Assembly: GCF_006345805.1 (NCBI RefSeq)
Contig: NC_043014.1
Location: 36,704,001-36,768,000 of the forward strand
Direction of reading: 5' to 3'
Length of the DNA: 64,000 nt
Origin: Octopus sinensis
Lineage: Eukaryota
The notes beneath the pieces were generated by a model. That model did no database searches and had not been told where the DNA came from. It saw only the letters and a program-made list of their open reading frames with translations. The first letter of the stretch is position 1, and every line of letters starts with the position of its first letter. Shown one piece after another: positions 2,550 through 34,782 of this stretch. The position numbers and the translations under genes are program-made.

Positions 2550-2863
2550 TTATAACTCATTGGAAATTTGTGCCTTAAGTGAACCAAAGTTTGTTTTACA
2601 TGTGATATTTGTGTCAGATACGTCTCTGGGTGGTGGAATGAAAGTATAATCGGATGATACCAGAGAATAACAGCTTGCAGTAAGCGGGATTTTCTCATTT
2701 TTGACGAAATAAAATTTTTTACCATTTTTTATCACAATCCACGTAAAGGTTAGTTGCGATTTAAAAGGTGCCCCAACAGTTGCTACACATCTTAGGTGTC
2801 TTACTTCTCTGCCTTCTTCATTAAATCCGTCGGCAATTTGCAGACTCTCTAACCTAGATTTTG
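2550..2863 (-). CDS. Gene A exon 3: C2-type Ig domain with stop codon
   Basis: TTTTCAG acceptor, phase 1, open frame (A)KSRLESLQ...LRCVATVGAPF...FTWIV...CYSLVSSDY...NITCKTNFGS...NEL*. Ig C..W..C spacing. GTAAGT donor 13 nt after the stop. Conserved in two paralogs. Confidence 0.8.
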
Positions 2864-3171
2864 CTGAAAAGAAATCGATCTAATATAGCAAAATGTTAGA
2901 ACAATATGCTTTGACTATTGGGTGGTTTCACTAATATAAACAACAATCTTCATACTAAACTAAAATGGTTAACACCACTCGAATGGTTCTTGATGCTGGA
3001 CCCTGTGAACTACTGTTTCTAACTTACATTCACATAAACACACGCAGACCGAGACACACATGCGCATGGACAAGCACACATCTCATGCGCACATACAGAC
3101 ATGCACATATGCTCAAACAGATACACACACACATATATTCACGCGTACTCACACCAACATGCACACACACA

Positions 3172-6100
3172 CTTCCAACAGTTCTGTTCATTTCCTCTTT
3201 CTTGTGCTGCTACTCCTAGGTTGGATTTGTAGCGGTAGCAAAGAGAGTTCAATGATCTCCATTGCAAGAAAGATTATTGAATAACCTCCCGTTATTCCCG
3301 TTTCTCGAAGCACCTGTATCATGAGATGTGATTCTTAATTATTCAAGAAACTTAGCGTTACTCTTGGAAGTTTCTACATTGTCTAGTGTTCCGTTAATAT
3401 AAGCAGCCTGCTAACCTGGCTCTTCTCTTCTTAGTCGATTAGGCTTAGAGCCATTCACGTCATTACTATGTCCGTCTATTTCTCTACGCCAAATGACTGA
3501 AACCCACCACTTAGCTGTTATTTCTATTTTCCTATCTCTGAACTTTCTTACATAGATTACTTCATTCAACTAGTTTCAACATTTTGATTATGTATCATCA
3601 TCTACCATTATATAAAATATATATAGTTCTTGAATTTATTCTTCATTTCTATATGAACTCTTTTAATAATAAACACACAGCCACATCAACACATAGTACT
3701 GACTATATATAACCACTACATAAATTGGTGACCCCGACGTGATAGAAATACGTATCTATTAAACCGCCAGCAGGTCATTGTCGTTTTTTGTCACTCGTGT
3801 GCACACACTCTCTGCATCAGTCACGCTCTGACTGGCATTTTCTGCACTCTGCGCACGCAAAACGACACTGCTATTCGGACTCCCTCGGATAAATCCTGTC
3901 CTCTATACATTTCTTTGAATTCTGTTTCCTGAGATGCACAATTTTCACTACCTCTATATTGCGTGCACAAACATACACGTTACAGAAGTTTGAACTTTGA
4001 TTTTTCACTTTGGACCTCAAATATTTCATTTATTCCATTCTGTTTTCATCTATTTTTGATATTTTATGATGTATACATTTTTGTTACTGTTATTGTATAC
4101 CGTTACCTCTGCCTGAGGGGTAGCAAGATAGTTGAGTGATCTCTCTTACAAGAAAGATTATAGAGTAACGTCCGTTCTAAGTTTCTCGGAGCATCTGCTT
4201 CATGAAAATTGATTCTTACTTACTCAAGAAGTTTAGCGTTTCTTTTCGAAGTTTCTAGAATGTCTAGCGTCCCATTAATAAAAACAGCTTCCTCACACTG
4301 GTCTTCGCTTCTTAGTCGATTAGACTTGGAGCCATTCACGTCATTGCTATGTCCATCTATTTCTCTACGCCACATTTCTGAAAGCTAACATTTAGCTGTT
4401 ATTTCTATATTTCTTATCGCTGAACTTTCTTGCATAGATTACTTCATTCAACTAGATTCTATATTTTGATTATGTATCATCATTGTCCAGTAAATAAAAT
4501 ATATATTTTTATGTAGTAAATGTATAGTTCTTGAATTTATTCATCTCTGTATGAACTCTTGTAATAATATACACGCTGCCATATCGACACCTTGTACAGA
4601 CGATATATAACCACTACAGACTTCATGTGGAACATCAACGGTGTCGTAGAGCACTTTCATAAGTATCTCTTTTTTTTTTTCGTATATCTTTTGTGTTCTC
4701 ATTTTTCGCGTCTTATATACATCATTTTGCCAATTCGCTTTTGTTACTACTTCGTCTTCCCAAACTTCTCTTCATTTTCATACATTTTGAAAAAAACACC
4801 TTGTCACCGATATTAAAGAACTTTCTCGTATTTTTAGTGCTTTCCCTATTTGTTTTTCTTACTGATAACAGCTTGTGAAAAATTGGTTTTGTTTTTCGAG
4901 CAATCGTTAGTTACGTAAGCAACTTGCCTGAACAAGGGCTTGGGTATGGTGCTATCCAATAAACCCTCAAGAATTCTGTCAATCCTGCATCATCGACTAG
5001 CTCGTTTCTTGATTTCTTTAATGCCCTTTTAAATGCATCCACGGACCGTTCCGCATACCCGTTTGATCTTCGCTGATATGGCAGAGTAGAGATGTGTTCA
5101 ATTTCATTTTTTGCAAAAGACCTCATACGCCGTAAACTGTGCACCGTTTTTGGATACTATGGTATCCAGGACACCATATCTTGCAAAGAGTTCATGATGA
5201 AATTCTGGTGTTACTGGAGAGGTTGGTTTCCTACATCTACAAATTTCCAGCCACTTATTATAACTATCTAATACAATCAGGTAATATGGGACATTTACTG
5301 CTTCAGCAAAATCTATATAAAGCCCGGTCTATAGACTGTCGGTTTTAGACTACGGCTGGAATTTTACCAGTGGTAACGTAACTGGCAGTTCACAGATAAC
5401 TTTACAAAAAACATTTTAAATTTCATTTTCCTCTCGCAAAGCGGCAATCACAGTATCTTCGAATGGTTCCACGTTTATCTAAATCAGGCTTGATAGAAAA
5501 TCTGCAAGACCAAATTTCTTGGATGGTATACACTACATCTTGAAATCATAGTTTGATAGTACCGTAGCCTAGCGTTGTAATCTATTACCAGTATAGGTAC
5601 AGATTCCTTTTTTCGACCCAAATATCGATAATAACGGTCGGTGATCAGTCTGTAGCCGAAAACTTCTACTATGCAAAAATCTGTGAAATCTATTCACAGC
5701 AAACATGATTGCTAGACCTTTTTCTTCGATTTGACTATAATTTTTCTCTGCTAATATCGGAGAACGTAAACATGAACCACCGCTTTCATGTTACCATTGT
5801 TATATTTATGTAGCATTACTTCTCTATACTGTTTTCACAAGTGTCTGAAGCTACAACAATCTCCGCTGCAGGATCAATGTGAGCTAATGACAAATCAAAT
5901 ATTAATATTTTGGCAATTTTCTAACCAGTTCCATTCCATATCTTTTTTCAGCAAATTATTCAGTGGAGCCCTAACCTGATGCATATTTGGGATATAATTT
6001 GGTAATAATTTGCAAGTCGTGAAAATGCTTGTAAGGTCGCTATATTAGTCTGAGGAGGGCATACTTTTAATTATAGCTGCCCTCGACAGGTCAGGTTGTT

Positions 6101-8463
6101 TCTGTCAATGACTTGTCCAAAATATCTCATTTCCGGTAAGAAAAATTCATATTTTTCTTCATTCAAGGTAAAGCCGTAATCCTAAATTTTCTCAAATACG
6201 TATTTTTCTGTGCTCGACGTGTCGATCCCTGGATTCACTTTTAATGTCTATATCAACCAGATACGGAATTGCGAATTCACAGTCCGCTCACAGTGCATCA
6301 ATGCACTGTTGAAAAATCGCTGGTGCGACTTTTAAACCAAATGGTAACCACTTATACTTATACAGTCTTTTATATGTGTTAACTGTTAGATATTTCGAGC
6401 ATTTATCGTCTATTCTAACTTCTATGTACGCGTCAGAGAGATCCAATTAAGAAAAGATTTTTTCGCCGTTCAATCTCGCAAATATATCCTGCGGAATAGG
6501 TTGCGAATAGTGGCACATTTTAAGACATTCGTGTAAACCCGTGGAAAGATCAGCACACACTAATTTTATTATTCTTCTTAATATATATAGTTGCTGCTGC
6601 CCCTTTAGAATATCTCATTGTTTGGATAAATACAATGTTTTCTAGTCTCTCTCATTTTTCATTGATTTGCTTCATCGCTGGGAGGGGCACCATTCGTTTT
6701 CGTTTAAATACTGGTATGGCGTTTACTTTTATTTGAAAACATGCTTTTGTCTTGGTACACAGATCTAATTTATCGGACAGAACTCGGGGGAAAATATTTA
6801 TTACTTTTTCTTTCAATTCGTCTGTTTTTACTGGAGGAAAAAGCATTTCTAATTTTATAGAACAGATTTATGGGAAGGTCCCATCAATTAAACAATTCCA
6901 TTCAGTCAGTACCGAACAAGTTTGCTGCATTATTTCACACAAAAACTTTTGCTTTCAAGGTTTTACACCGAAATCTCACATCAATTATCATTTCGCCCAA
7001 AACATTTAATTTTTTCCTGAGAGACGTTTTGCAAATTTTGAAGTTTTCATTAATGTAATCTTTCCAATTTTTTTCATGCATCAATATTAATTCTTAATTG
7101 TAATATCACTGTCTGTATCTAGTTATAACTTCACGTTCACAATATTAATTTTTATGTACACAAACTTTCTTTTGTGAGCTTCGCATAGACTTTCTGTTGA
7201 GAAAACCTTACCGCAATTTATTTTCATTCGGCCTTTTTTTTTGCTCTGCAATGTGAGGTTTTATGTCCGATTTAAATCTTTGAATTAACAGTTATTTTTA
7301 ACATGTAGACATCCGCACACATAGCATGGATTCGGTCTTGATCTTGGTTTTCTTTTTTCCTTATCCAACACTTCTGTATATGAGAGTAATGCTCTTCTTC
7401 GATTTTATTTGCGTTATATCGTAGAGTAATAGTTCTCTGACATTCCACTGCCACTGCCTGAAGAATGAAATTCTGGTCCTGTTTTAGTTTTGTCAATTAG
7501 ATCCGGCCACGTATCTGTGCATTTTTGCTTGCAGTTAACCCTTGAACAAAAATTAAATATTTGAACAAGTCCAGACTTAATTCTTTCAGTTTAAATTTTT
7601 CACGTTCTCGATTTACGACTCTGGTATAAATGACAAAATCATCTTTTTCTTTTTTTTTTACTAAATTCAAACATTACTAGCAAGTATTGGACAGGAACTT
7701 CTCTCATTGAAAATTTTCGATAATAATTTGTTTCATCGAAACAAATTTCACGTGTTTTCCTCTTTTGTTTGTTATCTTTTGTTTTGTTTTTATTCCGTTT
7801 TTTTGCAGAATAAATATACGGTATTTTTCGTGTTCGGCAGGAAACACTTGTCTTAAAGGTAGTCGTACCTTTTTATTGTCCGTCCAATTTTTGCACTCCT
7901 TCTTGAAGATTTCTTCACTGGAAATATGCAAAAGAAGTAATACCTTCTTCTGGGTTGTAATTAAATTCTGCAATTGCGTTTGCTACGCCGATGGTGAAAG
8001 CGAGCCTGGAGTATTTTGGGACTTCAGCATTAACTTCAGCAACTGTTGATATTGTTGTGGTTGCTGTAATTGCTGCTGTAACTGTTGTTGTTGCCTGCTG
8101 CAATCGCACCACGGAGGCTAATAAGTCTTCAACGTTAACTAATTTTTCTTTGATTCTGTATCAAAAGGAAATGTTAACGTCCGACGTCGCCACTTTATAT
8201 CTTGCTATACGTTGGATATACAGATGTCATGAAGCGGAGATGGACACAAGTGTCTTCTCACGAAGTGTTTCAAATTACTCCATTAAACACGATATTCCAA
8301 TAAATGAAAACTCTCAACGATCTCAAGGTCTTCCTACGCCGTCTACAAACCCTTAACAATTCCTACGACCGCCTTCAATTCAACCAATACGCAACCCTTA
8401 ATAAAAGTTCGGCTAGTTCTTTTCTCCAATCCCACAAGGGTATCAATGACTTTCGCCACCACA
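3172..8463 (-). mobile_element. Decayed Ty3/Gypsy element (LTR, PBS, gag, PR, RT, RH, INT) in intron 2 of gene A
   Basis: PBS-like TGGCGACGTCGG (rc of about 8181-8192) beside an LTR-like block at about 8197-8463. Gag-like AEFNYNPEEGITSFAYF, RT-region PVFKRKRMVP, INT PYQRRSNGYAERSVDAFKRAL. Its 3' part recurs in genes B (about 34855-35375) and C (about 54960-55870). Confidence 0.8.
3228..4618 (+). mobile_element. Short non-autonomous LTR element (TRIM-like) nested in the Gypsy element
   Basis: Two ~490-bp direct repeats (3228-3720 TGTAG...CTACA; about 4119-4618). PBS TGGTGACCCCGACGTGA at 3726 matches the tRNA-Trp 3' end. ~400-bp non-coding interior. GATT/GACT flanks. Absent at the paralogous site near 34910. 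Confidence 0.8.
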
Positions 8464-9186
8464 AAACTATTTCCTGTTTTATAGAAAAAAGGTGAATAAA
8501 ATGTTCAGCCTTGAAAAATTCGAGACTAGAATTGAAAAGATAAAAAAAGTTTTAATTGGCATTTTGTTTCACTTTTTGAAAAAAAAAGTTTTCATAATAA
8601 TTTCCTCTCTTTCATATCTTTCTTTTCCTTTTCACTCCTCCATTCCATTGTCTCCTTCCGTCTATAATGCATCTAATTGTGCTTCTAAAAAAATGCTATA
8701 ATTAATATTTATTTGTTAATATATTGGGATCGAAGTGTTGGTATCTCTCAATTCGTTTAAAAATAGGGTTGGTTTGTTGCTCATGAGACTAGCATTTAAA
8801 AATATGCAACAGAATACCACTTAATTATTTTTTAATTTTTCTGATACTAATTTCTAACTTTTGAAGACTCAACATTTTATTAAACCTTTTTTTAGAGAAA
8901 AATTTAACGTTTGAACATTTTATTGAACTTTTTTCCTGCAAAACAGGAATTTTTCCATTAACATTTTTTTATATCCTTTATTATTTAGATTATCATTCAA
9001 ATACCATTGCCAGCGTAAGCCTAATTTCTGGTTCACCCCCATTCCACGTTGAGGAGATTCTTTGTAGGATTAATTTCGACTTCACCAATTATCTAAAGTA
9101 TTACACTTCGAAATCTGAAATCTATGCTTATTATTAAACTCATATTGAGTCATATATTTTGTATTAATCAAGCAATATTTAATTTC

Positions 9187-9198
9187 ATATATATATAT

Positions 9199-9247
<49 letters not shown>
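9187..9247. repeat. (TA)n microsatellite
   Basis: Direct reading. Confidence 0.95.
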
Positions 9248-9251
<4 letters not shown>

Positions 9252-11471
9252 ATAGAAGGCTATTCATTTCATTTGATTTGGTTCAGTGTGGCAAAAAGCA
9301 ATGCAAATAATATTACATATTGTACAAATTTTATTTTAAACAATATGAATGCATTAATATTTTTGCATTTGAAATAAATGAGGGATAAAAAAATTGTTTT
9401 CAAATATCTCACATAATAATTAGACAAGGGAAGTGGCCAGTTAAACACAAAGAAGTAGTGAAAAAAACGGAAATGGACAAAAATTGAGGCAACTGTTGGA
9501 ACACTGCGAGAGAACCAAATAGAGACAATAGAGCCACGTTGTATAATAATAATAGAGAAGAAAACCAAGCGAAATGTAAATACGAAGAGGTTCTTAAGTA
9601 AATAATGTTAAAAAAATGTTGAGTTTTCGGAGATTTGACAACGAAAGAAGCAAACAACTTCACTGTTTTGTAGCGATTTTGCAGCGAGTATTGTTCTTCA
9701 TTGTTATTACTACTACATTTGTCATTGTAGCATCCATGTGTGACTTTCATTTTTATTTTTGCTTCATTGAGGTATACGGTCTAATTCTATGCTATCGGCA
9801 AATAAAATTTCAACCTAGTCTTAGCAATACAAGTATAATAATTTAACGCATGAGCTAAATATTTTAAAACGTATTGGGCAATTAGCTTTAGTTATAATAT
9901 TCTCCACTGGGCGCAAGATGAAATATCAAGATTTGAGAGGGGAAATAAAGAAAATGAAATCTATACTGCATTTAAAATACACCTCTCATAATTTGAAATC
10001 TGACAAAGAAAGATTATATCTACCGCTAACACAGAGTTATGAAACTATAACACTCTTATAAAATATCGACAGTGGAATTAGAAATATAACTAATAAGGAA
10101 GAATAGTAAGCAAATACATATAGCTTAAAGACCTGATCAGACAGAAAACACTTCTCTATATTCAAAGTAGCAAACAGTTAGAAAATACGTAACAGTAGCT
10201 GAGTTATTATACAATGGACATAAATGAGGTAATTTAGGCTTACATCAGAAAAAGCCGCAGAAAAACCAGTTTGGGATCTGTTAGTTCACAGAGACCAGGA
10301 GATCAATGTTAATCGACCTCATATTTTCAAACGCTAGCAGAAAAGGAATTACTTTTTTTTACCAAAATACTAGTCCTAACAAGTGATTTATTTTTATACG
10401 AAATATTTTTACAAATGAAAAATAAAAAAGGACACCTAGAATGTCGGAAAGGACAGAAACGGTCCCTATAATGACAGATCCCTTGGGAATGATTTTAAAA
10501 GATACATCAGAAACATAATCCAAATTCCAAATTACACACCGTACAGAAAATACACAGGGACGCTTAAGAAAGCTTAGCAGTAATGGATGATAGCCAAATG
10601 CTAATGGCAATTCAAGATACAATATATCATAATTAAAAATAAAACATTTTCTAGTCAGAATAAATACTTCTATAAATAACTCATGTCAGTCACTGCTACA
10701 TAAAACAGAAGAGACAATCCAATATTAAATAGAGACTGTAGTAAAGCAGGAGTATGGTCTTTCGTTTTACTGGAAAATTACCAAATTTGTTTCGTTTTTA
10801 TTAGACTTGATTTGCGAATCTTCGGCTAAATTTAACTGATAGTCATGGAATGACGAGCAGATATATAGCTGGATGAAAAGATAATAATTAACTGATTGCT
10901 ATAACCCAGGAATATTTATCTATAAAGTTATACCTTTATTGATTAGAACAATCTTTTTGTAGATTACTGACTCTGATCAGAAACAGGTGGGTGGATCTCA
11001 GAAATTTAGTTAATTATAATTCATCAAAAATAAAAAGTAACAGGGAGAGATTTTAATATTTAGCAGCTGTATGGAGACAACCGAGGACATTCTTTAATCT
11101 TATTCCTAAATCTTATCCTTAAAATATAATCTAACCGTGACTGGAAAATTATAATTTTTACAAAATTTAGTCATTCACATAATGAATTGCTTTTAACATG
11201 AAGTTGTTTGATATTGATTAATTAAATTTTTTTGTCCTACATCAATTATTCTAACCTCTATTTAATTCTACGGAGAATAGAACAACTAGATAGTGTACAC
11301 CATGCACAGTGTATTTTCATTGCAATATAACATAGAAAACCAAACCAAAGAATTTTGGCTTGTGCAAAAGATTGCACATGTCAAAATCTGCAGATACACA
11401 CAAAATAAATAAAGCTACTGAAAATGAATATTTCTGGGGCTGAATGAGTGCAAAAGCTGGGTAACACCAAC

Positions 11472-11789
11472 CTTTAAGAACCTTCCTTTCTGAAATTGCG
11501 TAGAATGTTTTACATGCGTAAGCTGCTACATCTCTGCAAGTGGGATTATATTTCCAACAGGTAACATGACCTTTTAAATTAGTAGGTAAATCACAGTCGA
11601 AACCTTGGCTAGTATTTAATTTTAGGTAGCCCTTGCTACGGTCATATTGTATATGTACGACTGTATCTTCGTTTTGTTGTAGTTTGAAGTCAAGAAGATT
11701 ATATACCTTATACTGGCATGTTAGTGATATACGAACTGTATTTCCCACATCAATACCCTCAGCTGGTTTCATTTCTACAACCTCAATAT
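11472..11789 (-). CDS. Gene A exon 2: V-type Ig domain
   Basis: TTACTTATAG acceptor, G|GTTGGT donor, 318 nt, phase 1-1. Reads IEVVEMKPAEG...SLTC...PTCRDVAAYACKT...VLK, with the V-set D-x-A-x-Y-x-C motif. Confidence 0.85.
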
Positions 11790-11994
11790 CTATAAGTAAA
11801 AATCAAAGAAATATATAATTGCAGTTATAGAACAACGGCGAAGAATATAATATGGAGAGTCATGGCATTAAAGAAAATGAGTGAATAAATGAATGAATGA
11901 ATGAATGAATGATGGTAGGCTCACGTAAGCCGAGAAATGGGGTTCTGCAATTTGCTGCTGAACACCCTGCAAAATGATTTGTTTAAAGTGATCA

Positions 11995-12410
11995 GGCGTA
12001 GGAGTGGCTGTGTGGTAAGTAGCTTGCTTACCAACCACATGGTTCCGGGTTCAGTCCCACTGCGTGGCAACTTGGGCAAGTGTCTTCTACTATAGCCTCG
12101 GGCCGACCAAAGCCTTGTGAGTGGATTTGGTAGACGGAAACTGAAAGAAGCCTGTCGTATATATGTATATATATATATATGTATGTGTATATGTTTGTGT
12201 GTCTGTGTTTGTCCCCCAACATCGTTTGACCACCGATGCTGGTGTGTTTACGTCCCTGTAACTTAGCGGTTCGGCATAAGAGATCGATAGAATTAGTACT
12301 AGGCTTACAAAGAATAAGTCCTGGGGGCGATTTGCTCGACTAAAAAGGTGGTGCTCCAGCATGGCCACAGTCAAATGACTGAAACAAGTAAAAGAGTAAA
12401 GAGTAAAGAG
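11995..12410 (+). mobile_element. tRNA-derived SINE with internal (TA)n/(TG)n and (GAGTAAA)n tail
   Basis: GGCGTAGGAGTGGCTGTGTGG head and GGTTCAGTCCC B box. Copies at 12999 and 50111. Absent from the paralogous site near 36385. Confidence 0.85.
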
Positions 12411-12998: not shown

Positions 12999-13136
12999 GG
13001 AGTGGCTGTGTGGTTCCGGGTTCAGTCCCACTGTGTGGCATCTTGGGCAAGTGTCTTCTGCTATAGCCCTGGGCCGACCAATGCCTTGTGAGTGGATTTG
13101 GTAGACGGAAACTGAAAGAAGCCTGTCGTATATATG

Positions 13137-13167
<31 letters not shown>

Positions 13168-13396: not shown

Positions 13397-13627
13397 ACTA
13401 ATACATTAAAACTGAGGAAGGAGAGTGGAAGGATAGATAAATGAAAGAGAAAAGGGGAGTGAATTGCAGTGAAAATAGATTATGGGGCCAGCTATAAGAA
13501 ATTAGTGTTAGATACATCAGCGATTAGGGAAGATTCTGTGGGGTGAAATACTCAAGTGGATGAAGTATAAGACATTCCGTTAAAATATTACCAGCATGGC
13601 CATTTGCGACATACAGGAGGGGAGACG

Positions 13628-13985
13628 TAAGTAATGTCACACCTCAGCTTACGTCAGTAATTGGTTCCAAGACATGCAACTTATCAAGAAAAGCGACGTA
13701 ACTCGGAAACCCATTTAAAAATTCATTGAAATTTGAAAAGAAAGGCCTCCGGTCGCTGTAAATTAATACACTTTAAATATTTCAATATAAATGGAAAATA
13801 ATAGGCATAAGTAATGTCACACCCCAGCTTACGTCGGTAATTGGTTCCAAGACATGCAACTTATCAAGAAAAGCGACGTAACTCGGAAACCCATTTAAAA
13901 ATTCATTGAAATTTGAAAAGAAAGGCCTCCGGTCGCTGTAAATAATACACTTTAAATATTTCAATATAAATGGAAAATAATAGGC
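13628..13985. repeat. Tandem duplication, two copies of a 180-bp unit
   Basis: TAAGTAATGTCACACC... starts at 13628 and 13808, nearly identical. Confidence 0.9.
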
Positions 13986-15710: not shown

Positions 15711-16990
15711 CGAGAGTCAGCTGGAAAGTTCATAGGCCGACTGTCAAATATTTTCATTAATTCTGAAATCTCTAAACTCTTTTCATTAATTTCAACTAGC
15801 TTTATTAATAAGTGAATTGTCACGTTCCAAGTAAACTGACGTTTAATTATTTATGAAATATTTCAGAACTAACTGGTAGCGACTTCTCTTGAAGATGGAC
15901 AATTTTGTCATAGCATTTTTAGCACGTACTTGTAGAAATGGGTTCAAACCCCAAGGACGTTCCTACTGACATGGTTGCTACTTTATTGAATTGTGCTCCA
16001 GGTTTATAAACAATGCAAAAGTGGGCAGCTGGATTTAGAAGGGGATGGGAACCTTTTGAAGATGAACCCAAATCTGAGCGTTTTGCAACCGCCACCACCA
16101 AAGAAAGCATTGATAGTATTCACCAGACAAATAGTGGATGACAGGCAGTTGACTATAAATCAAATAGGCAATGCTAACAGCATATTCCATGAGGGGGTTA
16201 AGAATATTTTGCACAATGAACTTGGTATAACAAACGTTTCTACTCGATGGATGCCACGTATTCTAATACCTGATCAAAAGCGACCCAGGCCAATCATATG
16301 ACGGGAAAATCTCACATCGTTTCAAGAAGATCGAGCTGATTTCCTTGAATGTTTCCTTACCTAAGATGAGTGTTGACTTTATCACTTTGAGCCAGAGACT
16401 ATGAAACAATCCCTGGAGTAGAAATGCCCCTCCTCACCTGCAGCAAAGAAGACCAAAGTCTTTTAATCTACAGGGAAGATGACAGCCTCAGATTTTTGAG
16501 ATACAAATGACATTGTGTTTCTTGACCTATCTTCAAAATGGCCACATCAGAACTGGAGAGTTTTATTTCAAAATGCTGAGGCAGTTAAGAAGGGTTATCA
16601 AGACCAAACACCCATGAAAACTGGAGAAAGGAGATTTGTTTCATCAGGACCATCCTCCAGTTCACAAATCCTTGCTTTCAATGGCTATTTTGAGTGACTG
16701 TGGTTTGAACTGGTTGATCCCGTTCGCAATTCTCCTGGTTTGACCCCAGCAGAATACCCATTGCTTCCACAGCATGACGAATGACTAGGTTGCGTACCAG
16801 TATCGCAGTCTGGACGACCTCATATCTGCTGTTGGATGAAAGCTTCTTCACGGATTGAATCCAAGCACTGCAACACCGATGGAGGCAGTGTATGGACTGC
16901 AAGAGGGACTACGTTGAGAAATAAACTTCATTTGGTTATTTTCCGTGGGAGTATCTTGATCAGCCTATAAATTTTCAGCCGACCATCTTA
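15711..16990 (+). mobile_element. Decayed mariner transposon in intron 1, shared by all three paralogs
   Basis: TA-flanked imperfect TIRs (CGAGAGTCAGCTGGAAAGTTCATAGGC / GCCTATAAATTTTCAGCCGACCATC). Translation VSTRWMPRILIPDQK. Copies at about 36985-37648 and 58855-60124. Confidence 0.85.
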
Positions 16991-17334: not shown

Positions 17335-17458
17335 GATCTTTTTCATGATACATCACTGCAATTATAACTGACAACATCGATGAAAATAAAATGCAAATAC
17401 GAGATAGACGGGGAAATAGCCGTCGGCTTCCAGTAACTGAAATATAACCATAAGACAT
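17335..17458 (-). CDS. Gene A exon 1: hydrophobic leader (signal peptide or signal anchor)
   Basis: ATG...MSYGYISVTGSRRLFPRLSRICILFSSMLSVIIAVMYHEKD, then C|GTAAGT phase-1 donor. ATG and frame conserved in paralogs with synonymous changes (TCA/TCT, ACT/ACA, GGA/GGG) and an in-frame 30-nt length difference. Confidence 0.7.
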
Positions 17459-23396: not shown

Positions 23397-23698
23397 CTTT
23401 AAGCATTTTCCTTGTTGAAGTTCGTTTATAAGCTTTACATGGGCAGACTGCTACAGCTTCGCATGTAGGATTTGGTTTGCAACACGTAATATAGCTTACA
23501 TCACCAAAAGGTAAATCATTCTCGAAACCTTCGATAATTATTAATGGTTTTCACATATACGTATTGTATATGCACATCTCTAACTTCGTTTTGTTGCAGT
23601 TAGAAGCCAAAAAAATTATATACCACATACCATCATGTTACTTGTCATCCCAACTGCAATACCGTCAGCTGGTGTCATTTTTAGAATCTAAATAAAAA
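23397..23698 (-). pseudogene. Disabled V-type Ig exon (psiV1), paralog of exon 2
   Basis: MTPADGIAVG...F*LQQNEVRDVHIQY...EGFENDLP...ITCCKPNPTCEAVAVCPCKA...MLK G|GTAAGT, with in-frame stops and frameshifts. Confidence 0.8.
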
Positions 23699-24090: not shown

Positions 24091-27000
24091 TATCACATCT
24101 CCCCTTTTGAGATTGACTTCTGTTGGAAGTGAATATTTTTTCTACTCCACATCTCCTTTCTTTGAGATTTACTTCCATTTCAAACTCAATATTTTTTCGT
24201 TTTGGTACTACCTCCAACTATTCCTCAGGCTTTCTTTTTCTTGTACTGTTACAACTTGATTCGAGTCGGCACATTAAAAATATCGTCGTGGACTGCCATG
24301 GATACTTCTTTCCTCGTAAACCTTTCTTCAGCAAACCTTCTTTTCAACTGGTTTATGTGTCTTTTATGTTTCCGTTTCGAACCTTTCACAATGTACGTCA
24401 TTTTACCGACTGGTTTTATTACTTTGCCGCTTTCCCAGCCTTCTTTTCCATTTCTGTACACTCTTAAAACACCTTATCACCAGATTTAAAATACTTGATC
24501 GTATTTTGAGTATTCTCCTTAGATTTTAACTTTCTTCCAGGTAATAACTTCTCAAAAACTGACCTAAGTTTTCTTGCGAATATCAGTTCAGTAGGCGACT
24601 TGCTTAAAAAACGTATTAGGGTCTGGTATTACACGGTAAACTCTCAGAAATAGTGTCAATGCTACATCATCACCTTTCAACACATTTCTGGATCTCTTTA
24701 GTGCCCTTTGGAACGCGTCAACAAAGCGTTCAGCTTGTCTGTTTGGTCTTGGGTGATACTGAGGGGCAGTGATGTGTTCAACTGACTACATCTTGCAAAA
24801 AATATTTAATTAATTGTGTACTGTTATCGGTGACTATGGTATCTGGGACACCATACTAGCAAGAAGTTCGTGTTGAAATTCGTCTGTTACCGTGGAGGCC
24901 GGTTTCTCACATTTACAAATTATTTCTGGTCATTTTGTATAGCTATCCACCACTATTAGATAATATGATCGGTTTAACGGTGCCGGTGCTGCGACGTCTA
25001 TGAGTAACCCGGTCCATAGAATACCGGTCTTGGGCCAAGGTTGAAATTTTGTACATGGTGATTTCGCTGCAAGAGCATAACTTCTGAAGGATGTTACCAA
25101 CTTCTCAATAACTCCTCATAAGCGACTTTATCCTAGAAATTCCTTGGATGTCCAGTGTGGAACTCCTTTAACATTCGATTTTGTAGCGAGGCATGCATTA
25201 CGATCCTCTGTGTGTACATAAGAATATTATCACATATTGAATACAAATTCAAAACTGTGTTGCGTCCAGCCACATGCAATATTTCCTTTGTTTCTTCTGA
25301 TCTCACTATCTTTTTCATTTTTGTGATAAACTCGTTTTTCTTTCCTCCGATGTCAACGGTAATTAACGTACAACGTTGCACAATAAATGTTTTATTTAAT
25401 TTTCGGCTTTTAACGCCGCTGTTTCTATGTTTTCTAGTGGTTCACTATATTTTGGTATTAATCGCGACAAACCAATAACATGTCTCAATTTTTTAGATGG
25501 TAAATACTTCATCTTGAAGTCATAATTCAATAGAATCGTCCCCCAGGGCTGCAATCTGTTGGCTGTGTGTGAGGATATGGGAACACCGTTTTTTAATTCA
25601 TAGAGCGACAATAATGAGCGGTGGTCTCTCTGATAACGGGGCTTTCTTCCATGTATAAATTTATGAAACTTTTTACCGTAAATATGGCTAATGCTTCCTC
25701 TTCTATTTGACTCTAACTTTTTTCAGCCAGCAGTAATGAACGCGAAACATGAGCTACTACTTTCGGGCTAACATCTTCATATTTGTATAAAATCTCAGAT
25801 TCAATGCCACTTTAACTAGCATCTGATGCCACTATTATTTCTAAATTCGGGTCAAAATGTGGTAACAATTCCGATGTTAATACGTTTTCAATTTCTTCAA
25901 ATTTTTTGGCATTTATCCGACCACTTCCGCTTAACGTCTTTTTTTAACACGTTATTCAGGGGTACTCTTAAATCGTTCATGTTTGGTATGTATACCTAGT
26001 AGTAATTTGCGAACCAAAAAGTGCTTGTAACGTCGTAATGTTTGTCGGGGGAAGCATATTTTTTATTGCATTTGCCCTAGACAGGACTGGTCTACGCCCA
26101 TTTTCGTTGATAATATGCCCTAGATATTTTATTCTTGGCCAAGAAGATTCACACTTTTCCTAGCTGAGCTTAAAGTCATATTTTTTTATGTTTTCGAAAA
26201 GATTCTTAACATACTCAACATGCTCACCCCGTGATTCATTTTTAATGAGTATGTCGTCAAGGTAAGCTACAGCGAAATCCGAGCATAATGTCCATAACTT
26301 GTTGCAAAATGCCACGAGCTACATTTATACTCCAAGGAAGTCGATTAAATTTATGCAACATTTTATGAGTATTAATTATCAAAAATTTTGAACATTCCTC
26401 AACAACCTTTAACTGCAAGTTTGCTTCAGATAGGTCCAACATTGAAAACATTTTCCTCCATACAACTTCGCGAAAATTTCCTCCGGACTTGGTAACGAGT
26501 AGTTATATGGCATCAAACATTCATTTAAACCTGTTAAAAAATCCACGCATACTTGGAATTTTTTTCTTGAAATAAACTTTTTGTGTCACCTATTTTGTGT
26601 AATCATTTTTTTTTTCAATAACGCCAATCTTTTCAAGTCTATACAATTCTACGTTGACTAGTTTCAACGCTGTGAATGGTACCGTTCGTTTTGGTTTATA
26701 GCGTTATAGCGTTTTCTTTCACTTGAAACTTCACCTGTTTTGGAGCAAAGACCCAATTCATAAAAGAAAACTTCAGGAAATTTTCTTAAGTCTTCCGATG
26801 CTTTAAATGTACTGGCGGAAGAGCCAATCCCATTTTCCAAAAATTATTTGAGAAGATCCCATAAGTTAAATAATTCCATCCACCTGTTCCAAATAAATTT
26901 TTCGTATTTTGCAATACAAAATCCTTGGCTTCCGAAGTTTTTCCACGAAATGTAACTTCACTTCTCATTTCGCCCATAGAATGCATTTTTTTCCTGAAAC

Positions 27001-27213
27001 ACCATGCGAAATTTCGAAGTTTCCTTTAATCTAGGTTTCCCTAATTTCCTCCATGCAGTTGTAATAATTACCCTGATACCACTGCTCGTACCCAATTGTA
27101 ACTTGATATTTACGTTATTCATTTTTATGGACACAAATTCTCTTTTCTGTGTCTCGCCTAGAATTTTTGTTGACAATACATTCTTTCCAGGATGTTTTTG
27201 CTTGACACCTTCT
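24091..27213 (-). mobile_element. Decayed Ty3/Gypsy pol (PR-RT-RH-INT) with polypurine tract
   Basis: FSMLDLSEANLQL, AYLDDILI, LKEFHTGHP, KGSKRKHKRHINQLK. GGGGAGA-TGTGATA PPT/LTR junction at about 24091-24104. Paralog at 43914-45990. Confidence 0.85.
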
Positions 27214-27480
27214 TTTATTTTGCACAATGAACTTGGTATAACGAAGCATGAGCTACTACTTTCATGGATGCCATGTATTTTGACACTTGATCAAAAGTGA
27301 CCCATGCCAATCATATCACGGAAAAATCTCCTAACCCAGGATGGGTGAGTGTTGGCTTCATTAATATGCGCCGGAGACAAAGTGACAATCCCTGCAGCGG
27401 AAACGCTTCTCCTCGCCAGCTCCAAGTTGGCCAAGGTCGTTTCATCTGCAGGGAAGGTGATGGATTCAGTTTTTAGGATG
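27214..27480 (+). mobile_element. Mariner transposase fragment
   Basis: ILHNELGITK...WMPCILTLDQK, then SSAGKVM-like motif. Confidence 0.7.
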
Positions 27481-27981
27481 TAAAATACACCATTTAACTA
27501 CCATTTACTGCATATTCTCTAATAAACGTATACAAATTAATTTATTTTATATATATATATAAAATATGGTTACGTTGGAGTCAAATGTTTATTTAAATAA
27601 GATAACTTTTAGACACATTCAATATTAACTCAGTAGTAATTCAATCATTATTTATATTAGGATCATTAATTAATAAACTAAATAAATTTAAAAACTATAA
27701 TGTAATAAAATTCATTAATATAATATTAATTAATTAGATAAACATCTAAATAAATCTACTTCGAGATATATAATAAAATACATTTTGATTAATATAAAAA
27801 ATTTATTTATTACAATCTATAAACTTAACTGTCGTTTATAATAAATATATATTATATATCATATAAATACTCAAAACAAATGCTAAATAATAATAAATTA
27901 AACTTATTATATAAGTAAAGTAATTTATATTTAGATCAAGTACTTCGCTCTTTAATTGAATAAATAAAGTACATATTATCA

Positions 27982-28170
27982 TCTATATATATATAACTGA
28001 GAATGTGGGTCTCTCTGTCTGTGTGAATCCCTAAAACCTGAAAACTACACAACCAATTTCATTCAAATTTTACACATGCCTTACTTAGGGTCCATGTAGT
28101 GTCATGAGCAAACAATTTTAACTTCTTGCCTAGGGCGAGTCCACAGCAATATCATATCTTCTCCACTATG
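27982..28170 (+). mobile_element. 5' fragment of a non-autonomous Helitron-like repeat
   Basis: A|TCTATATATATA start followed by TGTCTGTGTG...ACCAATTTCATTCAAATTTTACAC, similar in layout to 60775-61136. Confidence 0.45.
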
Positions 28171-28689
28171 AATCCCTAAAACTTGTTATAAATAAATATT
28201 ACATAAAGAAAAAAATATTTCACTACACATTAAAAATTATTTATTTAACGATACTAAAACTATTACCAAAAAAGATATATATATTTAATACTATTAATTT
28301 TAGTAGACATATAATAATCATAATACTAACAGTAACAATAATAACAATATCAACCACAAAAAATTAAATAACTATCTTTTAATCTATATTATTTAAATAA
28401 ATTATATATTTAGTAATAAAATAAACATCTAAATATAATCTAACTATAAGTATTTAAAGAACCTTTACTAACTCTTATTTACTAATACTCAATCCACTTA
28501 CAGAAGTGCAAACACAACACTACTATCATAAATTAATTAATTTATTCAATTATTTATTAATTTATTTAATAATATTAAATTATATTTATTAAATTATGTA
28601 ATATACAATATAAATCATATACTAAATTTTAGAATTAATACTAGTACAAAATATAACTACAAATTAGAAACAAAATAGGGTTTAAATAT

Positions 28690-29100
28690 AGTCGCTATTT
28701 ATCTAGAAATGTATTATATAAATAAAGTAATTTGTGTCTACATTTAATTTTACGCTCGTCTAATGTATTCACTAATTTATTATGATTATTAAATAATATT
28801 TCATTAAATTCACTAGAACATAAATAACAGGACTTGCTACCTATAATATATGATTTCGCCTTACAAATTATCTCCCACTTTAAATTATACTTAATTTGTT
28901 GGGATTTTAGTCATCATATGTATTTGCTAAGCCTTGTAGAGTTCATAAGATTTCTAGTTTTAAAGGAATGCATATGCTGTGCTACTCTTAATTTAATTTT
29001 AGAGGACGTGGACCCGATATATATGGCGTTTAAGTTATTATTATTCCTATTATTCTCATTAATTAATGTAATTACACATTTATATACAACATCGTTTAAA
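28690..29100 (-). mobile_element. Penelope-like element GIY-YIG endonuclease remnant
   Basis: YIGSTSSKIKLRVAQHMHSFKTRN...LKWEIICKAKSY...CYLCSSE...LVNTLDERKIKCRHK, the typical PLE endonuclease C-terminus. Confidence 0.75.
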
Positions 29101-29369
29101 TCACATTTATTATTAAATTAAACTTAGTTTTATCTCTACATGTACAATCTATGAATGCTTTATCTTTATTATTATTGATATTTTTGATAAGTTACGTTAT
29201 TGTTGTTGTTGTTGTTGCTGTTGATGTTGTTGTTTGGCTGTTGTAGGAAATAATCCTAATGTTTTAAGTTTCTAATTTAGTTAGTGGATTTTTTTCTATA
29301 GGAAAATTATTATCTTATTTATTTATTAAATAAATATTATTTGCTTATTTATTTAACTATTATCCTCAA

Positions 29370-29620
29370 ATAATATGGTTACGTTGGAGTCAAATGTTTA
29401 TTAAAATAAAATAACTTTTAGACACATTCAATATTAACTCAGTAGTAATAATAATAACATAAATGCCATTTATATAGGATCCACTTCCTCTAAAATTAAA
29501 TTAAGAGTAGCACAGCATATGCATTCCTTTAGAAATAGAAATCTTATGAAATCTACAGGGCTTCGCAAATACATATGGGGACTAAAATCCCAACAAATTA
29601 AGTATAAGATTGACTATAAT
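29370..29620 (+). mobile_element. Second, inverted Penelope-like GIY-YIG remnant
   Basis: IYIGSTSSKIKLRVAQHMHSFRNRNLMKSTGLRKYIWGLKSQQIKY. Reverse complement of about 28885-29045. Confidence 0.75.
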
Positions 29621-30046
29621 TTTAAATCAAATTAATTTCAATTGAATTTAAACTTAATTGTAATTCGAATTTAATTGCAGCCATGAAACGTACGTGGTGT
29701 TTTTACTTATAATATTATATATTTATCATTCATTTTATACTTTTTGAGATCTAGTTATAAGTTATATCTTTTATAAAAATATTTATTATTTGTTATTTAT
29801 GTATTGGTTTTTGTCTATCACTGTTTGAGTTGCATAATAGTGGTTATATTTCTAATTTATATTCTATATATATATATATATATTTACAAAAAGTCTAGGT
29901 GGCATACGAGTGGGAGTATATTTATAAAACAGAAGATTGAAAACGCCACTATATAATAAATTTTAATTATCTGAGAGATTTTGCATGTTTCGGTTCCACT
30001 TGAAAAATCGAACCTTCTCAAAAATATATATATTTAAAACCTAAGT

Positions 30047-30190
30047 GTAATTAAAGAAACGTTCATAATTATTTCTTAGTAGTCTCAACAAAGTCCACGT
30101 GGAAGCGTTTTATGTTCCTACACATAAAACACTTCCACGTGGACATTGTTGAGACTAGTAAGAAATAATTATGAACTTTTCTTTAATTAC
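30047..30190. repeat. 144-bp near-perfect palindrome (69-bp arms, 6-nt loop)
   Basis: GTAATTAAAGAAACGTTCATAATT...TTTTATGT tcctac ACATAAAA...AATTATGAACTTTTCTTTAATTAC. Confidence 0.9.
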
Positions 30191-30611
30191 TGTTAGCTTT
30201 TAAATATATATATTTTTGATAAGTTACGTTATTGTTGTTGTTGTTGTTGCTGTTGATGTTGTTGTTTCGCTGATATTGTTGTTTCGCTGATATTGTTGTA
30301 GTTGTGTTGCTGTTATCATTACCATCATTTTTATCCTTATCATGCACGGGTAATTGCAGAAGGTTTCGTAATATCGCCATATACAACCGTTTTAACGTCG
30401 TTTCTATGAAAATAACTATTTTAGTTAACGTTAGCTGATTCCTGTAGGAATTTAAAGTACTGCTTGCGATAAAATATTTTGATGGTCCAGGATACTATAA
30501 AACATTTCTTCTTGGAGAATGAGTACAGAATGAATAAACTGATTGTGCTCCATGGCTTTCTTCAACGGAGTAAGTATTCGATAAGAGAATTGCGATTGAG
30601 GATGCCGAAAT

Positions 30612-31000
30612 GGATGGAAGCACTCCGTCGGTTACAACGATGAGGGTTCCGGTCGATCCGAATCAACGGAACAGCCTGCTCGTGAAATTAACGTGTAAGT
30701 GGCTGAGCACTCCACAGACACGTGCACCCTTAACGTAGTTCTCGGGGATATTCAGCGTGACACAGAGAGTGACAAGGCCGGCCCCTTGAAATACAGGTAC
30801 AACAGAAACAGGAAGCAAGAGTGAGAGAAAGTTGTGGTGAAAGAGTACAGCAGGGATCACCACCATCCCCTGCCGGAGCCTCGTGGTGCTTTTAGGTGTT
30901 TTCGCTCAATGAACACTCACAACGCCCGGTCTTGGAATCGAAACCGCGATCCTATGACCGCGAGTCCGCTGCCCTAACCACTGGGCCATTGCGCCTCCAC
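30612..31000 (-). mobile_element. SINE (family of 14093-14478)
   Basis: Reverse complement of 14093-14478. TSD GGATGCCGAAAT at 30600-30611 and 31001-31012. Confidence 0.88.
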
Positions 31001-31306
31001 GGATGCCGAAATATATGAAAGATAAAGGAGATCCCAAACAGTTTTAATTATTTTCATTCCCCGTTTGTTATCCAATATCTTAACAGACTAAATATAATTC
31101 TCAAACCATAGCAGTTTGTTCGCTTTCTATACTTTTTCTTTTGATGTGATACTTTATATTAAATGTTACGATCGTTAATAATTGCTACTGCGTGTGGATA
31201 TATTGCGGCCTTGAGAATATTATTCAATTACTGCAGTAGTTGAATGATATATATATATATATACATGTATATTGATATACATTTATAATGATATATATTC
31301 ATACAT

Positions 31307-31613
31307 GTGGGGGCACAATGGCCTAGTGGTTAGGGCAGCGAAATCGCGGTCGCAGGATCGCGGTTTCGATTCCTAGACCTGGCGTTGTGTGTGTTTATTG
31401 AGCGAAAACACCTAAAAGCTCCACGAGGCTCCGGCAGGGGGTGCTGATCCCTGCTGTACTCCTACACCACTCTTTCTCCCACTCTTTCTTCTGTTGGCCT
31501 GCTCGCTTAGCCAGCGGGGTGACGTCATTCGAAGGCTAAAACAATGCAAACGCATTGTGACCAGCGATGTGAAGCAACATCTGATGGTCTGGTCGGTCAC
31601 GGTGATCACGGTG
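31307..31613 (+). mobile_element. SINE with the same tRNA head but a different 3' half
   Basis: Shares ~190 nt of head with 14093, ends in (CACGGTGAT)n. TSD ATATTCATACAT at 31295-31306 and 31614-31625. Confidence 0.85.
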
Positions 31614-32099
31614 ATATTCATACATACTTAATACTGAAAAGCAACAAGTAGTAACTACTGAACAAAGAACTCAGTACACTATTTAGAGGAAATATATATA
31701 TATTTATTACCAATAAAGTTGAGGTCGAAATTTTCGAAAAGATGTTAAGCAAACAGCAGTCTGAAAAAGGGAAGAATTGACATCATATAGAGAAAATATA
31801 CTTAAGTTATGAAGAAGGTAACAAGTATACATATTTACACGCGCGCGCGTTTATGTGTGTTTATGAATATAAAAGGATAAATACATACACAGGTAGAAAG
31901 ATATATATACATACGTAAATACATACATACATACATACTTTTCGGGCATGTTCGTTTGTTGGCTGCACCATATTACTCGTAACTATAAAATTCATACCAA
32001 ACATTCAACTTCATTTCATCTCAAGTGTACCTTCCGAAAAGATTTCTTTATCATTCTGAAGTATGTACTATTTAGAATCTTATTGTAGATGATGACAAT

Positions 32100-33622
32100 T
32101 TTTCCTCTTCCATTTACAGCCATGATATCCAATAACCCTGTAAATGTGAAATTCGACGTTTCACACAGCTCCTTGTCCTGTTAATACAATGTGGTAGGTG
32201 CTTGGAAACATTCAAGATACAAAACCCCGAAATTTCTATGAACCTTTCTGACAAGAGTAAAGAACGGGGAAGGAAAGCAAGTGTACGAAAATGAGCTTCA
32301 GAACTGACATCCATGTCTGCCTGACTTGTTTATTTGGAAGTTTTGCACAGTATTTTCATGTCTTCACATCATCAGTTTACACCATCACACGTCTTCAATT
32401 GAAATGGATGCATCTCTTGAACACTGAACCCTGTTCCTTCGACAAGAAACAAAGTGAATTGTTGTCACTCTGCTCAGAAGGTTCTTATGACGAGATCAGC
32501 CGTCATTCAGCTACACCAATACCAAACAGTTATCACCAGTACTTAATCCTTTCTGAGTGGGAAGGGTAACGATGCTTGAAAATTATTCTCAATTTTAATT
32601 AACATGGACATATGGACTGAACCAGAATACCTAAAATTATAAACGATATCCATTCATCTTGTCATCTATAACAGACATTCATGCAACCATCTCGATCGCT
32701 TTTGGTAATGCACCGTTTATCATGAGTTCCAGTGGTCGGAACGATGAGAGTGAAATCGCCAGTATTTATGCAGACACGATTCTTCCTTCTCTGTCATAGT
32801 TAGGGCGTTATACTTTTCAATATCTATAACAGCTTGTTACGATCCTCAAGATAGAGAACATGTAAAAAAAAACAAAGAGGCAAATTTAATGCAGCAAACT
32901 CTAGAGTCAACGCACGACCAATAGATTATTGCTTATTTTGATAACCAACAGAAGTCACTGTGCATTATAGCAACGATCCACGTTCAAAATCCGACATCTC
33001 CAGTCTGTTGTTTTTGGAAACATTTAGGCTAAGTTCCACTTATAAACCGCTACCATTGTCTGGAACCATTTGACTTACTCGTTGCAGTCCGTCACAGACA
33101 TAAATGGGGCCTATATACGCACTGAGTCTCTGTAAATCCCTGTCCATGAATTTCAGGGATCGAGCCCTAAGTACAAGCACGGCATACTTCGTGATTCGTG
33201 TCGAGAAAATGATGAATGATTATTCTCACAAAGAACACGTCGTAAGCGATGTCTTTTCTCTTCACTTCTAATTTTCTGTTAATATTTCTTTTTGATGAAA
33301 CCCAACATCTGTTATTAAATTTACCCATCAATTCCTGCGTAACTGGTTGGCTAATTCGATCTGCACAACTTCTCCATTTTGTGTGAGATATGTTCCGTTT
33401 TCAGTATCCTGAAGCTGTTTATTAATCTCGTCTATGTTGATTGTATGGATAACCAATTTGACTTCACTGTAACCAGCTGCCAAAAACTGTGGACAACATA
33501 CACAATGCCTATCGGTTATTTTGTAAACAATGTATCTACAACCCAAATATCCTACGGTTATTTCTTCGACGTTGGTGATGCCGGTTTGACAATTGTGAGT
33601 CGGAGCGCACTAAGTATCATTC
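32100..33622 (-). pseudogene. Gene B terminal exon (now 3' UTR), decayed TNFR-like cysteine-rich repeats plus TM remnant
   Basis: About 95 codons nearly open after the acceptor (NDT*CAPTHNCQ...CVCCPQFLAAGY...ENGTY). Later segments FLDTNHEVCRACT*G...TETQC and NRVC...PTTGTHDKRC...WISFIILGILVQSI. Many stops and frameshifts. Distal boundary uncertain. Confidence 0.5.
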
Positions 33623-34305
33623 CTAATAATATTATTAATATTACATAAGGGTATAAGTATATTTTGATGAAAAAATTATATACATACATGGTAATACGCA
33701 TGCATACATATATTCATAATCACGCGTGTGTGTAAACGTACACAAAATATGCATGCCCCCATACATATACAAATATGAATGCAAGCCAATTTCTAAAAGA
33801 ATATTTGCCCAGATATTTGCACCATCCCCCATCAAGGAAACGTATCCATTTCACGTATGCAAATGCACAGAAGCCACATACATATAACCACATAAATATA
33901 GCGTATTTGCAAAGACCCACACGTATAAAAACATGAAAACATCTTCGTACGTAAGAAGGCACAGACACACACAAAGACATACACACACACACATGTATGA
34001 AAGGTTTGAATACATACAATAGCATAGAGACACCGTAAGCATATTTAAACGAGAATACCTCTATGTGGCATTTTAACTAACAAGATTAGTAGCCACGTCA
34101 CATACATTTTACAAGAACTATTTTGAAAGAAATTTGGATACATTGGATATTATAGTTCCTGAAAAGAACGGATGTGAGATCACACCCGGAATACAGTCGA
34201 CTCTTAGATAGCGGTTGAGCTGAGTTAAATAACCGTTGTTACAAGAAAAGGGTAAACACTAATCAGGGTAAGAAATAGAAAATAGATTTACCTTTTTTTA
34301 CAAAC

Positions 34306-34619
34306 TTATATCTCATCGGTAATATGTACCTCAAATGAACCAAACTTTGTTTGACATGTTATATTTGTGACAGAATCGTCTTGGATTGGTGTAGTGATAT
34401 TATAATCAGATGATACCAGAGAATAACAGGTCGAAGTAACTGGTATGTTCTCTTTTTTGATGACATTATATGATTTACCGTGGTTTGTTACAATCCACAC
34501 AAATTCTACATGCGATTCAAATGGTGCGCCAACATTTGCTACACAACTAAAGGTTCTCACTTGTCTGCCTTTCTCCTTAAATTTCTTGACATATTGAAGA
34601 TGCTTTAAGCTAGATTTTG
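34306..34619 (-). CDS. Gene B exon 3: C2-type Ig domain with stop codon
   Basis: TTTTCAG acceptor, 314 nt open, (A)KSSLKHLQ...FSCVANVGAPFESHVEFVWIV...CYSLVSSDY...NITCQTKFGS...DEI*. Confidence 0.8.
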
Positions 34620-34782
34620 CTGAAAAGAAAACGATCTAATATAGCAAAATGTTAGAACAACATGCTTTGACTATTGGGTGGTTTCATTAATATAAACAAC
34701 AATCTTCATACTAAACTAAAATGGTTAACACCAGACGAATTGTTCTTGATGCTGGACCCTGTGAACTACTGTTTCTAATTTG

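Follow-up and report, generated by a model that had tools for sequence, protein, structure and literature searches.

We analysed 64,000 nucleotides of Octopus sinensis DNA (NCBI RefSeq assembly GCF_006345805.1, contig NC_043014.1, positions 36,704,001 to 36,768,000 of the forward strand; hereafter the window, in whose coordinates positions are given unless a contig is named). The window sits in a 55-Mb contig of a 2.7-Gb genome. Self-comparison revealed three homologous units, all on the minus strand, each holding a gene (A, B and C) with a leader exon, an immunoglobulin (Ig) V-type exon and an Ig C-type exon that join in phase 1 at canonical splice sites. Our analysis supports positive selection on the V-domain loops of these genes. 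An earlier reading of the window, made from the sequence alone and called here the original prediction, had omitted two degenerate V relics and leader exons outside its coordinates. The features are as follows.

17335..17458, minus strand: gene A leader exon of 41 codons, running from the ATG to a phase-1 donor, with a hydrophobic stretch that starts at residue 21
11472..11789, minus strand: gene A Ig V-type exon, AG acceptor and GTTGGT donor
2550..2863, minus strand: coding part of the gene A Ig C-type exon, with a stop 13 nt ahead of the family's usual donor
2864..3020, minus strand: intron segment upstream of C exon A, family-specific, the first flank of the original prediction
1463..1859, minus strand: gene A last block with AATAAA at 1659, probably a 3' untranslated region (UTR) exon and its flank; gene conversion with B or C is likely
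23398..23694, minus strand: dead V-exon relic upstream of gene A, with frameshifts and stops and without a C exon
37891..37984, minus strand: gene B leader exon, 31 codons, 3' part included in RefSeq model P0001
35833..36153, minus strand: gene B Ig V-type exon, V fold predicted, matches LOC118766817
34306..34619, minus strand: coding part of the gene B Ig C-type exon, with a stop 14 nt ahead of the donor
34620..34776, minus strand: intron segment upstream of C exon B
33227..33623, minus strand: gene B last block, likely 3' UTR, AATAAA at 33423
40899..41179, minus strand: second dead V-exon relic, upstream of gene B, a duplicate of the one at 23.4 kb
60369..60462, minus strand: gene C leader exon, 31 codons
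57010..57324, minus strand: gene C Ig V-type exon, matching part of protein P0010 at 71/71 residues
54452..54750, minus strand: coding part of the gene C Ig C-type exon, with a stop 20 nt ahead of the donor
54751..54908, minus strand: intron segment upstream of C exon C
53318..53723, minus strand: gene C last block, likely 3' UTR, AATAAA at 53534

The open frames of A, B and C span 251, 242 and 235 amino acids, and the sole hydrophobic stretch of each sits in the leader. The leader of gene A is open, in phase with V and C, homologous to the family's leader exons and followed by a GTAAGT donor, and the V exon of copy B is 100% identical to O. sinensis LOC118766817 over 106 amino acids. Judging from the splice sites and the RefSeq model, the transcripts are probably spliced leader-V-C; in four RNA runs compared with unit B the splice joint was not seen, which counts neither for nor against expression. 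All three models end with the C domain, with no further domain after it. RefSeq model P0001 treats part of the B last block as a 51-amino acid tail. We judged a coding role of the last block unlikely, as its donor is missing in A and C, AATAAA lies inside it, the neighbouring paralogue D carries a stop there and the predicted fold is poor (predicted local distance difference test, pLDDT, 43-68). To go by the leader and the predicted fold, the products are likely secreted two-domain Ig V plus C proteins; they are small and basic (net +9 to +18).

AlphaFold2, run with a 50-row alignment, gave a pLDDT of 96-98 over both domains. Residues 24-134 of the model superpose on VH, VHH and T-cell receptor (TCR) V domains (Z 11-12, root-mean-square deviation about 2 A, 95-105 residues), the C' and C'' strands are present in the predicted V beta-sandwich (DSSP), and Foldseek ranks Fab, TCR and butyrophilin chains highest, with 12-15% identity. 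C25, D88 and Y92 are invariant and C94 nearly so across 29 V exons, with the B/F Cys and the D-x-x-x-Y-x-C motif kept. The V domain also has three additional invariant Cys, and Leu37 replaces the canonical C-strand Trp. By predicted fold and by Cys and motif pattern, this is a V-type domain of the Ig superfamily. The family scores below the Pfam V-set and C2-set cut-offs: one of the 50 rows matches PF07686 (E 0.008), none of the three window V open reading frames (ORFs) matches an Ig family, and the eight window ORFs searched gave no Ig family. A sequence search of solved structures returned a single match (E 0.68), and a predicted homodimer of copy B (residues 27-231), run without an alignment, scored 0.00.

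The original prediction held that the Ig exons diverge far more than the adjacent introns and UTR. Its domain counts were reproduced: A and B share 54/103 residues in the C domain, and the V-domain figure of about 65/106 became 64/105 ungapped, or 65/106 by tblastn. All four exonic indel events (3, 6, 9 and 30 nt) are in frame, as claimed. The two flanks that it called nearly identical do differ little between A and B (6/157 sites in the intron upstream of C, 17/397 in the downstream block), but they are atypical, being the least diverged: together they differ at 20/521 sites (0.038), versus 278/2185 (0.127) across six further blocks of homologous non-coding DNA (Fisher p 1.6e-10). The reduction is confined to pairs with A. 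The six blocks gave 0.127, 0.133 and 0.074 for A-B, A-C and B-C, and the two flanks 0.038, 0.061 and 0.056, so that for B-C the contrast is 0.056 versus 0.074 (p 0.15). Exon differences are 0.21-0.26 for A versus B or C and 0.15-0.20 for B-C. The observation is thus confirmed, with a real exon excess of about 1.7- to 2.7-fold and not 5- to 6-fold; the contrast as first described was roughly two to three times too high. The leader exon changes quickly as well, with 28/88 sites and a 30-nt in-frame indel separating A and B.

In the V exon, silent sites change at the non-coding rate and replacement sites do not. At silent third positions of unchanged codons we counted 6, 4 and 2 differences versus 6.0, 5.8 and 3.6 expected at the non-coding rate (12 versus 15.4 over three non-independent pairs). 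Replacement differences per site (pN) were 0.232, 0.243 and 0.171 versus 0.127, 0.133 and 0.074 for non-coding DNA, 1.8-2.3 times faster (p 1.7e-5 to 3e-6). The dead V relics, likely duplicated along with A and B, serve as a built-in control: they differ at 31/289 sites (10.7%) versus 67/312 (21.5%) for the live A-B V exons (p 4e-4). M7/M8-type site models favoured a V class with omega (the ratio of replacement to silent rates, dN/dS) above 1, M8a versus M8 giving p 2.7e-7 for A-B-C and 5.6e-8 with D added. With gap-flanking codons masked, M1a/M2a gave p 0.006 and none of 109 null simulations reached the statistic. The changes had been said to cluster at positions like those of complementarity-determining regions (CDRs), and they indeed map to the BC, C'C'' and FG loops of the predicted fold; with loops defined from the model, omega was 4.0 there versus 1.1 elsewhere in A-B-C (p 2.4e-7). 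Codon models were our own implementation (GY94, F3x4), with branch lengths scaled in the seven-copy and multi-hit fits. In a comparison of alleles, five of the six exonic substitutions among the rows listed change the residue, which is about chance level and was not used.

The same pattern was found in a sister clade of seven intact copies located 200-420 kb away; three further units were excluded because the V exon was frameshifted or missing. Over the gap-free V alignment pN was 0.111 (0.085-0.139) and its silent counterpart pS 0.031 (0.012-0.052), none of 5000 bootstraps had pN at or below pS, the intron value was 0.044 and omega was 3.4. A null model with multi-nucleotide changes (multi-hit null) was rejected for both V (p 6e-7) and C (p 0.009). 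The BC, C'C'' and FG loops had an omega of 5.2 versus 2.9 elsewhere (p 0.007), with 10.9 in the C'C'' loop and 8.5 in the DE loop. A transmembrane (TM) exon suggested in this clade by weak tblastn matches was rejected, the annotated tail being an exon just upstream that resembles a glycosylphosphatidylinositol (GPI) signal.

The C exon behaves differently. There dS equals dN (pairwise omega 0.83-1.05), silent sites change at 1.9-2.4 times the non-coding rate (P 0.014-0.047), and site models gave p 0.078 for the three copies (M7/M8) and p 5e-4 with D. A dS as high as dN had been named as the sign of flank homogenisation instead of selection; that sign is present in the C exon and not in V, although Innan's model also predicts it when selection bars conversion. 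As far as the accessible part of PMC3966226 goes, selection blocks conversion at selected exons in that model, so that divergence peaks there. Exon pieces imported from other paralogues are an alternative for the C exon, and the last third of the C domain of B has 44-56% identity to every relative tested. The claim of positive selection is supported for the V-domain loops and confirmed in the sister clade; taken as a whole, the original prediction is supported in part.

Conversion and selection had been posed as alternatives, yet both operate here, in line with Innan's model (PMC3966226). In the last block, which carries a conversion signature, the A-B, A-C and B-C distances are 0.042, 0.053 and 0.047, each copy is 0.245 from D (equal to D's intron 3 distance), and the grouping of B with C, seen at 17/23 informative sites in intron 3, is seen at 0/3. 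These distances together with the lost grouping argue for conversion rather than constraint, and the last block of A was likely converted with B or C. The intron segment upstream of C is closer to D (0.11-0.15) than other introns are (0.23-0.25) and is recognisable near at least 12 distant paralogues at 73-81% identity (16 matches in all); it may reflect either constraint or conversion, which are inseparable there. The segment may be a constrained splicing element, but in the sister clade it varies about as much as the remaining intron (7/88 versus 149/1385 columns, p 0.48), and one copy of the seven there lacks it. D segments for the introns beside V failed to align (0.43-0.56) and were ignored, as was the misaligned y1 downstream flank.

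The three genes belong to a large family. At least 42 V matches were found across the genome, and the 864 kb around the window hold 27 V and 27 C loci (iterated profile, frameshifted halves merged), of which 23 V and 25 C exons are intact; the cluster spans 840 kb. Single-base frameshifts in some cluster copies may be assembly errors. A second family cluster lies at C18:6.4-6.55 Mb. Ten of the 27 C exons, including those of A, B, C and D, stop just ahead of a donor that the others read through, and 14 cluster exons encode a short hydrophobic tail resembling a GPI signal (judged by eye). The order V-C-TM-tail is shared by the cluster-edge gene LOC115221679, its intronless copy on another contig and an Argonauta protein. 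Among 1.84 billion representative sequences there were 46 matches, 37 of them with E < 1e-9. Of these strong matches 25 were looked up, and the 23 named ones are all Octopus or Argonauta (two are unnamed); the nine weaker matches are fish, crinoid, bacterial or unnamed. Among named strong relatives the sequence family is octopod-limited as judged by these searches, and it includes transmembrane, GPI-like and anchorless forms. The best O. bimaculoides counterparts have 65-76% identity per domain. In the tree an O. bimaculoides protein is the partner of copy A (V: 99/91), and the duplication separating A from B and C therefore likely predates the split from that species. The placement of copy C in the C-domain tree was not used owing to long-branch attraction.

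Several further observations concern the family and its surroundings. More members lie at C18:6.40-6.55 Mb and on contigs C9543, C12040 and C9019, and related annotated proteins end in GPI-like tails. The intronless V-C-TM copy (L011:1297-2343, G000:C1:167.3 Mb) is fully open and likely a retrogene of the ancestral form, and L014 on C3 is an apparent partial leader plus V retrocopy of another member. At C18:36795579-36806506 (L039 and L040, about 36.80 Mb) a single V exon precedes three C exons in tandem, of which the second is frameshifted; alternative C use and partial duplications are both possible. The O. bimaculoides RefSeq isoforms P0002 and P0004 come from one locus and share leader and V but differ in their C domains, through either real alternative splicing or a merged model. 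A young clade of about 10 copies in two orientations occupies C18:36.28-36.55 Mb; a repeat like a short interspersed element stands directly upstream of the C acceptor in all ten, and two V exons are frameshifted, O. vulgaris P0008 being open for one of them. P0007 (C18:36876889-36883455) has a Thr-rich mucin-like stalk, with five near-identical repeats in the O. vulgaris model. Within the window, tandem duplications at 61173-63019 (about 860 bp, 97%) and 13628-13985 (179 bp, 98%) are either recent or assembly artefacts. Degenerate retrotransposon-like relics, which presumably carry reverse transcriptase/integrase-like fragments, occupy introns and spacers at 4600-7200, 24100-27100, 43900-46000 and 54950-55700, and mariner-like transposase fragments lie near 15990-16300, 42900-43600 and 59100-59500.

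We compared the cluster with known systems. The vertebrate CEACAM/PSG (pregnancy-specific glycoprotein) family has TM, GPI and secreted forms. Its likeness to the octopus genes lies in a tandem Ig-superfamily cluster with anchored and secreted paralogues (octopus GPI attachment and secretion being predicted), V-exon selection and gene conversion. The portion of PMC7893922 available to us describes secreted members, strong diversifying selection on receptor-binding domain exons and rapid orthology loss, and an excerpt of PMC8860441 describes repeated selection and gene conversion under pathogen pressure. We treat the octopus cluster as an analogue of this family and not a member: no CEACAM occurs among the named sequence matches, the CEACAM7 N-domain is one tied V-fold match (rank 47, Z 11.3), and the octopus V domain differs by its three extra invariant Cys and the Leu in place of the C-strand Trp. 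In FREPs and VIgLs a fibrinogen or other lectin domain comes after the Ig-superfamily domains. FREPs are also molluscan; FREPs and amphioxus VCBPs differ from the window genes in carrying a fibrinogen or chitin-binding module, since the latter stop after C. No gastropod or amphioxus protein was found among the named sequence matches, and the Atlas lists unnamed Mollusca clusters at 0.92-0.93, as leads only. According to the part of PMC13428168 at hand, gastropod FREPs and amphioxus VCBPs are germline-encoded diversified invertebrate immune families.

B7, butyrophilin, CD200 and nectin V+C2 proteins share the V plus C order and overall fold, and the ancestral octopus member is V-C-TM-tail; the octopus family differs in scoring below Pfam, in being octopod-limited and in the anchorless window copies. 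Snake venom phospholipase A2 and three-finger toxins resemble it in pattern only, their paralogue introns being more alike than the exons (PMC2474615, in part); the fold is unrelated, and we saw no sign of toxin function in the octopus family. RHD/RHCE under Innan's model, as far as PMC3966226 could be consulted, likewise show a divergence peak at selected exons as in the octopus C exon, but with two copies rather than about two dozen. The design of a rearranging Ig/TCR locus was not found, as V exons run to the C junction and splice in phase to their own C (recombination signals lay outside this search). A check for Dscam-type splicing found one V and one C in each window gene, and one V and three C at C18:36.80 Mb.

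We read the window as three tandem V+C octopus genes under host-parasite-type selection plus conversion, with a probability of about 0.5. The frames are intact, there are about two dozen paralogues, and V shows a replacement excess whereas its silent sites keep to the non-coding rate. The ancestor would have been a membrane V+C receptor that duplicated repeatedly, some copies gaining a GPI-like tail and others losing the anchor; the subfamily of A, B and C would have shed it through a stop just ahead of the last donor. Selection would favour new residues at membrane-distal V loops while copies die and are replaced, and conversion would even out some flanks. Between A and B/C it would have overwritten the 3' block, and selection would act against converting tracts that reach into exons, so that the C exon would look older than its flanks even at silent sites. 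Up to this point we consider the scheme highly probable. As a guess at function, the proteins might be soluble recognition molecules or decoys for anchored members. Given selection, host-parasite recognition, as sensors or decoys that would bind changing molecules of parasites or microbes, would be a somewhat favoured purpose by analogy, because anchored plus soluble binders under such pressure most resemble CEACAM/PSG.

Some results weigh against this reading. Pairwise whole-exon omega, 0.83-1.62 overall and 1.3-1.6 in V, was never significantly above 1 (best p 0.24), and the tree-free bootstrap on the window copies gave P(pN<=pS) of 0.10 for V and 0.42 for C. Masking combined with multi-nucleotide changes left p 0.097 for V and 0.27 for C in A-B-C. 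The A-B-C loop positions were first spotted from variation, making that test partly circular; the pairwise tests share sequences and are non-independent; and the conversion blocks were chosen after the fact. High omega in the sister clade extends to the DE loop (8.5) and the framework (2.5), placing change beyond the CDR-like loops. Finally, the end of the leader is charged and differs from the usual signal-peptide end of the family, which qualifies the presumed cleavage and secretion of the A, B and C products.

The same selection could instead be reproductive, with the proteins acting as recognition factors of sperm, spermatophore or egg coat. Small, basic, fast-evolving and likely secreted proteins with O. 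bimaculoides counterparts at only 65-76% fit this, but the V part of P0010 (assigned to O. vulgaris only by its search neighbours) is 71/71 identical to copy C and so shows no fast species-level change, and about two dozen diverging anchored and soluble paralogues would fit a repertoire better than one lock and key; we consider this unlikely. Components of saliva, venom or mucus aimed at prey or external microbes would share with snake venom genes introns more alike than exons (PMC2474615, in part). However, most cluster copies carry GPI-like or TM anchors, and selection is strongest in the sister clade, whose tail is GPI-like; we regard this reading as quite improbable. V+C ectodomains might instead make up an adhesion code for cell identity or self/non-self, in neural wiring or allorecognition, which could draw on the anchored forms and on the Atlas look-alikes (fasciclin-3-like, CADM4 and CD200-like, leads only). 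Against it stand secreted copies, birth-and-death turnover (dead V relics, frameshifted copies) and omega above 3, which are unusual for wiring molecules, and we give it little credence.

Relaxed exon drift without positive selection, the contrast arising from flank conversion alone, would accommodate dS equal to dN and the 1.9- to 2.4-fold silent rate in the C exon, and the last block does look converted. For V this is largely refuted: silent change keeps to the non-coding rate, the dead V pair shows half the divergence of the live one, all four indels are in frame and sister-clade pN is 3.6 times pS without reference to a tree. Overall, drift is a poor prospect. Exon-targeted hypermutation or clustered multi-nucleotide mutation mimicking selection, to which the 10-21 codons per pair with at least two base changes and the loss of A-B-C significance under the multi-hit null would point, is very improbable, since that null is still rejected once D is included (V p 0.007, C p 0.015) and for the sister clade, silent change in V is not elevated and dead V copies mutate like introns.

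A bolder extension of host-parasite recognition, which we consider doubtful, is an octopus germline Ig repertoire of about 40 V+C genes, grown from one ancestral membrane receptor, with GPI sensors and secreted decoys whose V loops would follow parasites, and with further diversity from V spliced to varied C exons. If true, such a CEACAM/PSG-like system would have arisen by convergence, and no earlier diversified immune family of Ig type would be on record for cephalopods. We found no such recognition family for cephalopods in the literature searched, which left out supplements and most subscription papers, and no publication on the cluster, including under six locus names, judged mostly from titles and the starts of abstracts. 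The part of a 2026 review at hand (PMC13428168) treats FREPs for gastropods and bivalves and, for cephalopods, only blood-cell formation. The novelty lies in the undescribed octopod Ig cluster and not in the evolutionary pattern, which is familiar; the locus is a clean case of selection and gene conversion acting together. Because the genes fall below Pfam cut-offs and are labelled 'uncharacterized', immune-gene surveys likely miss them. They provide named candidates with predicted binding loops for octopus recognition of parasites or mates, which is relevant to aquaculture.

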